NCBI RefSeq assembly: GCF_053078305.1
Contig: NZ_CP166879.1
Reading direction: 5' to 3' (one strand)
Length of the DNA: 64,000 nt
Made by a program: the position numbers and the translations under genes. The notes under the pieces were generated by a model. The model was given only the letters and a program-made list of their open reading frames with translations, did no database searches and was not told where the DNA came from. Positions 60,186 through 64,000 of this stretch are shown here, piece after piece. Position 1 is the first letter of the stretch, and each line of letters opens with the position of its first letter.

Positions 60186-61874
60186 ATGAGTGGTGAAAAA
60201 AAGGCGAAAGGCTGGCGGTTCTATGGTCTTGTAGGTTTTGGCGCAATAGCACTGCTTTCCGCTGGCGTCTGGGCGTTGCAATATGCTGGCAGTGGGCCAG
60301 AAAAAACGTTGTCGCCGCTGGTGGTGCACAACAATCTGCAAATCGATCTCAATGAGCCGGACCTCTTTCTCGACAGCGACTCTCTGAGCCAGCTTCCCAA
60401 AGATCTCCTCACCATTCCGTTTCTCCACGATGTTCTGAGTGAAGATTTCGTTTTCTATTATCAGAATCATGCCGATCGTCTGGGCATTGAAGGCAGCATT
60501 CGTCGCATTGTCTATGAACACGATCTCACGCTGAAAGATAAACTCTTTTCGTCACTCTTAGATCAGCCCGCGCAGGCGGCGCTATGGCACGATAAACAAG
60601 GCCATCTTTCACATTACATGGTGCTGATCCAGCGCAGTGGTTTAAGCAAACTGCTGGAGCCATTGTTGTTTGCCGCTATCAGCGACAGCCAATTAAGCAA
60701 AACGGAAATCAGTAGCATCAAGATCAATAGTGAAACTATTCCTGTTTATCAGTTGCGCTATAACGGCAATAACGCCCTGATGTTCGCGACATATCAGGAC
60801 AAGATGTTGGTGTTTTCCAGCACGGATATGCTGTTTAAAGATGAACAGCAGGATACCGAAGCTACGGCGATCGCAAGTGATTTGTTGAGCGGTAAAAAAC
60901 GCTGGCAAGCCAACTTTGGCCTGGAAGAGCGTGCTGCCGAAAAAACGCCAGTACGCCAGCGCATCGTGGCCAGCGCCAGGTTGCTGGGTTTTGGCTACCA
61001 GCGGTTAATGCCTTCTTTTGCTGGCGTACGCTTCGAAATGGGTAACGACGGCTGGCACAGTTTTGTGGCGTTAAATGATGAATCCGCCAGCGTAGATGCC
61101 AGTTTCGATTTTACGCCGGTCTGGAACAGTATGCCTGCCGGGGCCAGTTTCTGTGTGGCGGTGCCGTATTCACACGGTATTGCCGAAGAGATGCTTTCGC
61201 ACATCAGCCAGGAAAACGACAAGTTGAATGGGGCGTTAGACGGTGCTGCGGGGCTGTGCTGGTATGAAGACTCAAAATTGCAAACCCCGCTGTTTGTCGG
61301 TCAGTTTGATGGCACTGCCGAACAGGCGCAATTGCCAGGGAAACTGTTTACGCAAAATATTGGTGCGCACGAAAGCAAAGCGCCAGAAGGTGTTTTGCCG
61401 GTAAGCCAGACTCAGCAGGGCGAAGCGCAAATCTGGCGTCGCGAAGTGAGTTCCCGATACGGTCAGTATCCGAAAGCGCAGGCGGCGCAACCCGATCAAT
61501 TAATGTCGGATTATTTTTTCCGCGTGTCGCTGGCGATGCAAAACAAAACGCTGCTTTTCTCCCTCGATGACACGCTGGTTAATAACGCCCTGCAAACACT
61601 GAATAAAACCCGCCCGGCAATGGTGGATGTAATACCCACTGATGGCATCGTTCCGCTCTATATCAATCCACAAGGAATGGCGAAACTGCTGCGTAACGAA
61701 ACGCTGACCAGTCTGCCGAAGAATCTCGAACCGGTTTTTTATAACGCCGCACAAACTTTATTAATGCCGAAGCTGGACGCTTTATCTCAACAACCGCGTT
61801 ATGTCATGAAGCTGGCCCAGATGGAACCCGGTGCCGCCTGGCAGTGGCTACCCATAACCTGGCAGCCGCTATGA
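60186..61874 (+). CDS. yfaA: DUF2138-family protein YfaA (signal-anchored)
   Basis: 562 aa from [30 protein letters not shown]; first gene of yfaA-yfaT-yfaS cluster. Confidence 0.82.
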
Positions 61875-62494
61875 GGAACGGGCTGCTGGCGCTGATTTGC
61901 TGGCTGTGTTGTGTTGTTGCCCATAGCGAAATGCTGAATGTCGAACAATCCGGGCTGTTTCGCGCCTGGTTTGTGCGCATTGCTCAGGAACAGCTCCGCC
62001 AGGGGCCAAGTCCACGCTGGTATCAGCAGGATTGTGCGGGCCTGGTGCGATTTGCAGCGAACGAGGCGCTGAAAGTTCACGACAGTAAATGGCTAAAAAA
62101 TAACGGTTTCTCTAACCAGTATTTGCCGCCAGAGATGACGCTAACACCTGAACAGCGGCAACTGGCGCAAAACTGGAATCAGGGGAACGGGAAAACCGGC
62201 CCCTACGTGACCGCGATTAATTTGATTCAGTACAACAGCCAGTTTATTGGCCAGGACATAAACCAGGCGCTGCCTGGCGATATGATTTTTTTCGATCAGG
62301 GCGATGCCCAGCACTTAATGGTCTGGATGGGGCGTTACGTCATCTACCACACCGGAAGCGCCACGAAAACTGACAACGGAATGCGCGCAGTCAGTCTGCA
62401 ACAATTTATGACATGGAAGGACACCCGATGGATACCCAACGATTCCAATCCCAATTTCATTGGCATTTATCGTTTAAATTTTCTGGCGCGATAG
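61871..62494 (+). CDS. yfaT: DUF1175-family protein YfaT
   Basis: 207 aa from [19 protein letters not shown] (signal peptide); start overlaps yfaA stop (ATGA). Confidence 0.8.
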
Positions 62495-64000
62495 CAGCGT
62501 GCTTGTCCCTGTCTCTTGTGGGAACAGGGCTTGCTAATGCTGATGATTCGCTTCCTTCCAGTAACTATGCGCCGCCCGCAGGGGGAACATTCTTTTTGCT
62601 TGCTGACAGCAGTTTTAGCAGCAGTGAAGAGGCGAAAGTGCGACTGGAAGCGCCGGGGCGTGATTATCGGCGCTATCAGATGGAAGAGTACGGCGGCGTG
62701 GACGTTCGCCTGTATCGTATTCCTGACCCGATGGCATTTTTGCGCCAGCAGAAAAACCTGCATCGCATTGTGGTGCAACCGCAATATCTGGGCGACGGGC
62801 TGAACAATACGCTGACCTGGCTGTGGGATAACTGGTACGGCAAATCTCGCCGCGTGATGCAGCGTACTTTCTCTTCTCAGTCACGGCAGAATGTGACTCA
62901 GGCATTACCCGAATTACATCTCGGCAATGCCATTATTAAACCTTCCCGTTATGTACAGAACAACCAGTTTTCCCCGCTGAAAAAATATCCCTTGGTGGAA
63001 CAGTTCCGTTATCCACTATGGCAGGCTAAACCGGTCGAGCCGCAGCAAGGGGTAAAACTGGAAGGCGCATCCAGCAATTTCATCTCGCCGCAGCCGGGTA
63101 ACATTTATATTCCTCTCGGCCAACAAGAGCCGGGACTGTACCTCGTCGAGGCGATGGTTGGTGGGTATCGGGCGACGACGGTGGTGTTTGTTTCCGATAC
63201 CGTGGCGCTTAGCAAAGTGTCAGGCAAAGAGCTTCTGGTGTGGACCGCGGGTAAAAAACAGGGTGAAGCGAAGCCCGGCTCAGAGATCTTGTGGACTGAC
63301 GGTCTTGGCGTGATGACCCGCGGTGTGACCGATGACAGCGGTACCTTGCAGTTACAACATATATCGCCAGAACGTTCATACATTCTGGGTAAGGATGCTG
63401 AAGGCGGCGTTTTTGTCTCCGAGAACTTCTTCTACGAAAGCGAAATCTACAACACCCGCTTGTATATTTTTACCGATCGCCCGCTATATCGCGCAGGCGA
63501 TCGTGTCGATGTTAAAGTGATGGGCCGCGAGTTCCACGATCCGTTGCATTCATCCCCCATCGTCAGCGCCCCGGCGAAGCTTTCGGTGCTGGACGCTAAC
63601 GGCAGTCTGTTGCAAACCGTCGATGTCACGCTGGATGCGCGCAATGGCGGGCAGGGAAGTTTCCGCCTGCCAGAAAATGCCGTTGCCGGAGGTTATGAGT
63701 TACGTCTTGCTTACCGCAATCAGGTCTATAGCAGCAGTTTTCGCGTGGCAAACTACATCAAGCCACATTTCGAGATTGGTTTAGCTCTCGACAAAAAAGA
63801 GTTCAAAACTGGCGAAGCGGTCAGCGGCAAACTGCAACTTCTCTACCCGGATGGTGAGCCGGTAAAAGATGCCCGCGTGCAGTTAAGTTTGCGCGCTCAG
63901 CAATTATCAATGGTTGGTAACGATTTGCGTTATGCCGGACGTTTTCCCGTGTCGCTGGAAGGCAGTGAAACGGTGTCCGACGATAGCGGTCATGTGGCGT
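62428..64000 (+). CDS. yfaS: alpha-2-macroglobulin-family protein YfaS, N-terminal part (3' end outside window)
   Basis: Reading frame open from ATG at 62428 ([38 protein letters not shown] signal peptide) to the window end without stop; overlaps the 3' end of yfaT in another frame. Confidence 0.75.

Follow-up and report, generated by a model that had tools for sequence, protein, structure and literature searches.

The closest described relatives of the locus presented here are the mag operons of Pseudomonas, notably magABCDEF of Pseudomonas aeruginosa, whose alpha-2-macroglobulin (A2M) is MagD. MagD is a periplasmic protein that MagB tethers to the inner membrane; it binds MagA, MagB, and MagF 1:1 and is degraded in the absence of MagB (PMC3735191, PMC5764988). 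Non-covalent trapping of proteases after cleavage of the bait region is known only for MagD of P. aeruginosa (PMC5764988), and a 2025 CRISPR interference (CRISPRi) screen showed that the mag operon guards P. aeruginosa against the peptidoglycan-targeting type VI effectors VgrG3 and Tae1 (PMC12663445). Here we describe three genes, yfaA, yfaT, and yfaS, that lie directly 3' of gyrA, all in the same direction, in the final 3.8 kb of a 64,000-nucleotide stretch of Escherichia coli DNA from contig NZ_CP166879.1 (assembly GCF_053078305.1); this whole stretch is referred to as the window. We regard it as very probable that these genes belong to an intact mag-type operon for a Type II macroglobulin, with yfaS starting at the ATG at 62428 and with a mechanism drawn by analogy with Pseudomonas. 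gyrA ends at 60037, and the features of the locus are as follows.

60186 to 61874, plus strand: yfaA, ATG to TGA, 562 residues, DUF2138, predicted MagB-type inner-membrane anchor or scaffold
61871 to 62494, plus strand: yfaT, ATG to TAG, 207 residues, DUF1175/MagC, NlpC/P60-like
62428 to 64000, plus strand: 5' part of yfaS, codons 1 to 524 of 1534, truncated by the window end, MagD orthologue
62428 to 62494, plus strand: yfaS and the 3' end of yfaT overlapping out of frame, 67 nucleotides
62417 to 62421, plus strand: AAGGA Shine-Dalgarno sequence of yfaS, within the yfaT codons TGG AAG GAC (Trp-Lys-Asp), 6 nucleotides before the ATG at 62428
63457 to 63747, plus strand: MG2 domain of YfaS, residues 344 to 440, Pfam PF01835, E = 1.8e-26

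A megablast search with 60038-64000 matched 5398 of the 5426 complete E. coli genomes, with most matches 95-99% identical for yfaS, and the RefSeq features lying under them are yfaA (DUF2138), yfaT (DUF1175), and an alpha-2-macroglobulin family protein. These labels at syntenic loci and the Pfam assignments agree with the gene identities given in an earlier note on this DNA, and all coordinates in that note are correct, including those of the ATGA at 61871-61874 that is common to the yfaA stop and the yfaT start and of the yfaS start 67 nucleotides within yfaT. The earlier note also had yfaS open for more than 520 codons up to the end of the window; the frame does run from the ATG at 62428 to base 63999/64000 without a stop, giving 524 codons, with the closest upstream in-frame stop at 62371. 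With its MG2 domain and its match to yfaS across E. coli, this open reading frame is far beyond chance; no minus-strand open reading frame beneath these genes reaches 120 residues, and all are nested in the plus-strand genes, and an Rfam scan of 60038-64000 matched no family. In both O157:H7 strain TR01 and K-12, yfaQ and yfaP come next.

Judged by protein identity and gene order, the cluster appears to be the enterobacterial five-gene yfaA-yfaT-yfaS-yfaQ-yfaP form of the P. aeruginosa magABCDEF operon. Relative to the mag operon of Pseudomonas protegens, YfaA is 44% identical to MagB, YfaT 73% to MagC, YfaS 54% to MagD, YfaQ 54% to MagE, and YfaP 40% to MagA, and the gene order is conserved in Chania, Salmonella, Aeromonas, and Pseudomonas loci. 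MagC/YfaT is conserved far above its operon partners between E. coli and Pseudomonas (73% identity versus 40-54%). In the P. protegens comparison locus a MagF-like frame at the magF position (16880-17813) is split over two frames and is not called as a gene, possibly reflecting a frameshift or a sequencing error.

The gene yfaA is preceded by an AAGGA Shine-Dalgarno sequence 8 nucleotides 5' of its start, and its product matches Pfam DUF2138 with an E value of 4.5e-288 and the NCBIfam equivalog PRK11410 across residues 1-562; NCBIfam holds no model for YfaT, YfaS, YfaQ, or YfaP. Hydropathy analysis predicts a lone N-terminal hydrophobic segment at approximately residues 12-32 (about 60219-60281), and the only 19-residue segments to exceed a hydropathy of 1.6 begin at residues 12-14. 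With a DUF2138 domain and a single predicted transmembrane helix, YfaA has the make-up of a MagB/DUF2138 anchor. YfaT matches DUF1175 (E = 1.3e-58) and, at 20.9 bits, falls under the 23-bit cut-off for NLPC_P60; its alignment with P. aeruginosa MagC in PDB 7BK8 (E = 3e-103 over residues 21-206) is consistent with membership of the MagC/DUF1175 family with an NlpC/P60-like core. A signal peptide is predicted by hydropathy at residues 1-19 (61871-61927), and the NlpC/P60-type residues Cys55 (62033), His148 (62312), and His160 (62348) are present, with His148 aligned to the His of the 'qHV' motif in the NlpC/P60 protein 3I86. By the NlpC/P60 motif, His148 would be the catalytic histidine, and Cys55 and His160 would complete the catalytic set. 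MagC has an NlpC/P60-like fold and, as cited in PMC10318531, was reported by Zouhir (2021) to bind peptidoglycan without hydrolysing it.

The full-length domain architecture of YfaS was read on the TR01 protein, whose first 524 residues are those encoded in the window. Pfam finds MG2 at residues 344-440, A2M_BRD at 661-806, A2M at 871-953, and bMG10 at 1409-1517, with only MG2 falling inside the window; YfaQ carries two DUF2300 domains and a SpoIID-like stretch, and YfaP a DUF2135 domain. The earlier note had proposed a search for a bait region and a thioester motif, and it is the bait region (A2M_BRD) that is found and the thioester that is missing. The thioester site lies past the window end and was examined on contig JPQG01000003.1, which is identical to the end of the window. 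No CxEQ occurs across the 1534 residues of this YfaS, whose only cysteines are at residues 25 and 1189, and the four YfaS family members examined carry zero to two cysteines each, none of them conserved. A phmmer search of YfaS against PDB returned only weak matches to C5 and CD109 and no link to Type I A2Ms, and BLASTP of YfaS against the E. coli Type I protein YfhM (ECAM) gave no match; because these direct searches did not connect YfaS with the Type I proteins, a four-sequence profile was needed. Aligned by hhalign, the YfaS profile matches YfhM over its full length (98% probability, E = 1e-12) and places the YfhM thioester, C1187-L-E-Q1190, opposite G1069-V-I-N1072 (GVIN) in YfaS.

The common superfamily and overall domain order seen in this profile alignment are what might lead one to regard YfaS as a classical thioester-containing, ECAM-like Type I protease trap. 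However, CxEQ is absent and the homologous site reads GVIN, neither BLASTP nor phmmer links YfaS with YfhM, and yfaS has no pbpC neighbour, E. coli having a separate Type I gene, yfhM, that does stand beside pbpC. That YfaS is of Type I is thus hardly credible. The lack of CxEQ together with GVIN at the homologous position indicates instead that YfaS belongs to the Type II bacterial alpha-2-macroglobulins, which have no thioester, an assignment that agrees exactly with the literature on mag-type operons (PMC3735191, PMC5764988).

Hydropathy predicts a Sec signal peptide at YfaS residues 1-38 (62428-62541), cleaved at ANA|DD, and signal-like sequences at the N-termini of all four of YfaT, YfaS, YfaQ, and YfaP; with the one helix of YfaA, these fit an envelope complex. 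Residues 22-25 of YfaS (IAAC) resemble a lipobox, and Cys25 was considered as a lipoprotein anchor. Such an anchor was judged unlikely, because the preceding hydrophobic stretch is short and broken by Lys17 and the cysteine is not conserved, being missing from the Salmonella and Pseudomonas members; under PROSITE lipoprotein rule PS51257 the stretch containing Lys17 must be uncharged.

The earlier note described K-12 yfaS as a split pseudogene and suggested that this strain may have an intact version. K-12 MG1655 yfaS (b4500) is indeed still annotated as a pseudogene, but it is not split: comparison with K-12 places the lesion at one in-frame TGA at codon 1368 (W1368*), which is TGG in other strains, and there is no frameshift. 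The window ends 844 codons short of this position, and K-12 yfaS is equally open over the 524 codons that it covers, so that the openness seen here makes no contrast with K-12 and the window alone cannot tell an intact from a K-12-like yfaS. To extend the locus downstream we looked up contigs coding for exactly the YfaT of the window. One of these, JPQG01000003.1 (GCA_000736735.1), corresponds to window positions 51871-64000 with no mismatches in 12,130 nucleotides, and in it yfaS is open for 1534 codons with neither stop nor frameshift beyond the window end, followed by yfaQ, yfaP, and rcsC; the extension through yfaQ and yfaP that the earlier note had proposed is thereby supplied. The gene is also intact in four further near-identical assemblies.

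The alleles at codon 1368 were determined with 55-mers centred on its third base, with every 28-nucleotide megablast seed forced to include that base. Of the 5426 complete genomes, 364 have the K-12 TGA allele, all 364 being exact matches to the K-12 55-mer; the 40 that were sampled all appear to be K-12 stocks, most of them named K-12 laboratory derivatives. The TGG allele is present in at least 5009 of the 5426 (over 90%), and full-length yfaS is found in 5383 genomes, as a single piece at 80% coverage or more in 5362. Given the numbers of genomes with TGG and TGA, an intact yfaS is the norm in E. coli and no peculiarity of this strain; K-12 is the exception, its pseudogene state being a lineage-specific W1368* nonsense mutation.

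Since the window ends at codon 524 of 1534, a K-12-like lesion at codon 1368, or some other disruption past the end, would not show in it, and such disruptions do occur. One retrieved assembly has a stop at yfaS codon 267, and GCA_043578865.1 (10652-13009), a near-identical haplotype with the same yfaA and yfaT, has the end of a Mu-like prophage (Mom, Com, and a Gin-type invertase) at yfaS codon ~32, corresponding to window position ~62522. However, JPQG01000003.1 is identical over the final 12,130 nucleotides and has an intact gene, the four further near-identical assemblies do too, and the TGA allele is found solely on the 100% K-12-type 55-mer. A disrupted yfaS in this strain is therefore very improbable, and we take an intact gene to be almost certain.

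The extent of the junction between yfaT and yfaS depends on which yfaS start is used. The PGAP/Prodigal call in TR01 and in most of the assemblies retrieved is a 1504-residue product starting at the GTG at 62518 (Val31 of the long form), 24 nucleotides past yfaT, and with this start there would be neither an overlap with yfaT nor overlap-based coupling. However, the curated K-12 record has yfaS starting at the ATG at 62428, which is the codon preceded by AAGGA and is kept through a rare CGA codon in ~10 divergent lineages. The long form has a charged N-region and a hydrophobic core with a maximum 15-residue hydropathy of 1.91, compared to 0.76 from the GTG, and an A2M bound for the periplasm would not be exported from a start that leaves it with no hydrophobic core. 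We consider a start at 62518 unlikely. Translation most likely begins at the ATG at 62428, 67 nucleotides inside yfaT, and the automatic RefSeq GTG start probably cuts into the YfaS signal peptide.

The yfaS ATG is made by the yfaT codons CGA-TGG (Arg-Trp), the Arg being that of the MagC motif W-K-D-T-R-W-I-P. This Arg codon is CGA in all seven loci first compared and in 74 of 75 MagC genes in a scan of species-representative genomes, even though just ~2.5% of the Arg codons in non-overlapping magC are CGA or AGA and two other nearby Arg codons vary freely. The Lys codon within the yfaS Shine-Dalgarno sequence is AAG in 71/71 MagC genes that have Lys at this position. At four codons a T in the wobble position would put a stop into the macroglobulin frame; none of 73 genes has T at any of the four, while neighbouring codons often end in T. 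The -67 ATG is present in ten of eleven lineages that are less than 85% identical in nucleotide sequence, the exception being gamma proteobacterium HdN1, and 5380 of the 5426 E. coli genomes carry the A of this codon. Very little synonymous variation is seen in the ~60 nucleotides around the W-K-D-T-R-W-I-P codons, where the rare codons CGA, ATA, ACA, and CAA occur even in GC-rich Pseudomonas. Conserved RNA structure was considered as a cause of nucleotide conservation in the overlap and found to be unsupported, the consensus fold having -4 kcal/mol and no compensatory pairs.

A second in-frame ATG, which shares an ATGA with the magC stop and precedes a canonical signal peptide, is found in most lineages as well; PAO1 MagD is annotated as starting there, with a 26-residue signal peptide (PMC3735191, Table 2). 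In E. coli, E. albertii, Salmonella, and Citrobacter the second ATG is lost, the position reading ATA or GTA, and the -67 ATG is thus the only start in Escherichia, Salmonella, and Citrobacter that gives an exportable protein. Whether mag-type macroglobulin genes more widely start 67 nucleotides inside magC/yfaT, with selection keeping this start across gamma-proteobacteria, we judge to be an evenly balanced question on these codon patterns. The ATGA at the yfaA/yfaT junction is a classic termination-reinitiation arrangement; the 67-nucleotide overlap would act otherwise, by way of an internal ribosome-binding site within yfaT. It is from these junctions that we infer, as did the earlier note, a tight translational coupling of the three genes.

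By analogy with Pseudomonas, a mechanism can be proposed in which YfaA, like MagB, would be a single-pass inner-membrane protein, YfaT, like MagC, an exported protein of NlpC/P60 fold, and YfaS, like MagD, a 1534-residue periplasmic Type II macroglobulin with MG domains and a bait-region domain and no thioester. Together with YfaQ (MagE-like) and YfaP (MagA/F-like), encoded next and past the window end, these would assemble into a periplasmic complex tethered to the inner membrane. Cleavage of the bait would then lead to non-covalent trapping of incoming proteases, and the complex may also, or instead, shield the cell wall from foreign peptidoglycan-degrading effectors. Complex formation, protease trapping, and envelope protection are each inferred for E. 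coli from the Pseudomonas system.

Several points weigh against this overall interpretation. A literature search gave no experiment on the E. coli proteins, and their proposed function derives from Pseudomonas orthologues that are 40-73% identical. Even in Pseudomonas the target of Type II A2Ms, whether proteases or cell-wall hydrolases, is unsettled (PMC12663445), and the upstream magA copy is missing in E. coli, such that the composition of the complex may differ from that in P. aeruginosa. The intactness of yfaS is read from an identical proxy assembly, JPQG01000003.1, rather than from the strain's own downstream sequence. Lastly, no sigma-70 consensus was found in a promoter scan of 60038-60185, and two terminator hairpins stand between gyrA and yfaA.

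60057 to 60074, plus strand: terminator-like hairpin 1, 3' of gyrA, AAGGGAGCTATCTCCCTT and then a T-rich tail, from a terminator scan
60085 to 60114, plus strand: hairpin 2, the stronger, with an A-run, a 13-bp stem, and a U-run, from RNA folding

The spacer between gyrA and yfaA is 148 nucleotides long, and the RNA fold of 60038-60200 has a free energy of -60.3 kcal/mol (z = -4.9). Both hairpins look like gyrA terminators, and beyond hairpin 2 yfaA would require either a promoter of its own in the remaining ~70 nucleotides or read-through. There are GGA motifs at the ribosome-binding regions of yfaA (ACAAGGAAUGU, 60160-60188) and of yfaS (AUGGAAGGAC...GAUGGAUA, 62413-62435), which are reminiscent of sites bound by CsrA/RsmA. 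In P. aeruginosa, RsmA has been reported to target the magA leader (PMC3735191).

Several further features were noted in the window and its surroundings. Among the complete E. coli genomes searched the best identity to 60038-64000 is at most 99.2%, so that the lineage of the window is absent from them, whereas draft assemblies match the same region at 100%, or with a single mismatch and a 6-nucleotide indel. In contig JPQG01000003.1 (17594-17868) and in the O157:H7 TR01 locus (18427-18700) yfaP is followed directly by rcsC, and the ato genes are therefore not at that position in this lineage or in TR01; in K-12, atoE and atoB adjoin yfaP, and the whole atoSCDAEB locus presumably lies between rcsC and yfaP. 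Between glpQ and inaA (43328-47164) there is ~3.6 kb that is missing from K-12, which has only a yfaH pseudogene remnant there. This segment contains an intact LysR-type regulator (45050-45928, minus strand), a transporter resembling the major facilitator superfamily (46080-47270, plus strand), and a 368-residue AT-rich open reading frame of unknown function (43516-44622, minus strand). The region 3621-5197 is 81% identical in nucleotide sequence to the K-12 yfbN-yfbO region, compared to ~98% in the flanking DNA, and looks like a divergent or recombinant allele. Sub-threshold Rfam matches to naRNA4, resembling repetitive extragenic palindromic (REP) elements, occur on both strands at 56410-56554, just 3' of ubiG. 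In GyrA (57410-60037), Ser83 and Asp87, the usual fluoroquinolone-resistance positions, are both wild-type.

The operon, the protein family, and the pseudogene status of yfaS in K-12 are already known. What is mildly new is limited to the conserved start codon inside yfaT and the probable mis-annotation of the yfaS start in RefSeq genomes. As the normal E. coli state, an intact yfaS should not be marked as a feature of a strain. K-12 derivatives are without a full-length Type II macroglobulin, which could matter for studies of envelope defence or for their use as type VI secretion prey, given the protection that MagD affords P. aeruginosa from effectors aimed at peptidoglycan (PMC12663445); if the analogy holds, K-12, the usual laboratory strain, would be naturally null for yfaS and thus for part of a system that in Pseudomonas protects from cell-wall-targeting type VI effectors. 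If the -67 start is the true one, the GTG start, which the pipeline called in all non-K-12 E. coli records examined, truncates the signal peptide and would lead to misleading predictions of localisation.

The E. coli locus shares with the P. aeruginosa mag operon the order DUF2138 - DUF1175 - A2M - DUF2300 - DUF2135, an A2M that like MagD has no CxEQ and is nearly free of cysteine, and an A2M with a predicted signal peptide and probably no lipid anchor, the sole transmembrane helix being in the MagB-type partner. It differs in having five genes and gyrA as its upstream neighbour. Escherichia, Salmonella, and Citrobacter also differ from PAO1 in having no ATG overlapping the magC stop, and must use the ATG 67 nucleotides upstream. 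With the Type I proteins E. coli YfhM (ECAM) and Salmonella Sa-A2M, YfaS shares superfamily, domain order, and a predicted envelope location; the Type I form, however, has a CLEQ thioester (1187-1190 in YfhM), a lipoprotein signal, and pbpC as its partner gene, while YfaS has GVIN, no conserved cysteine, and a mag-type operon. K-12 MG1655 b4500 lies at the same locus with the same start and 67-nucleotide overlap, and is 98.3% identical in nucleotide sequence to yfaS of JPQG01000003.1, differing in that its TGA at codon 1368 removes the C-terminal 167 residues, including the bMG10-like domain. The metazoan proteins alpha-2-macroglobulin, complement C3-C5, and CD109 have MG2 and A2M domains in common with YfaS, which directly matches C5 and CD109 only weakly, but YfaS is without thioester or receptor-binding function and would reside in the bacterial periplasm with dedicated partner proteins.

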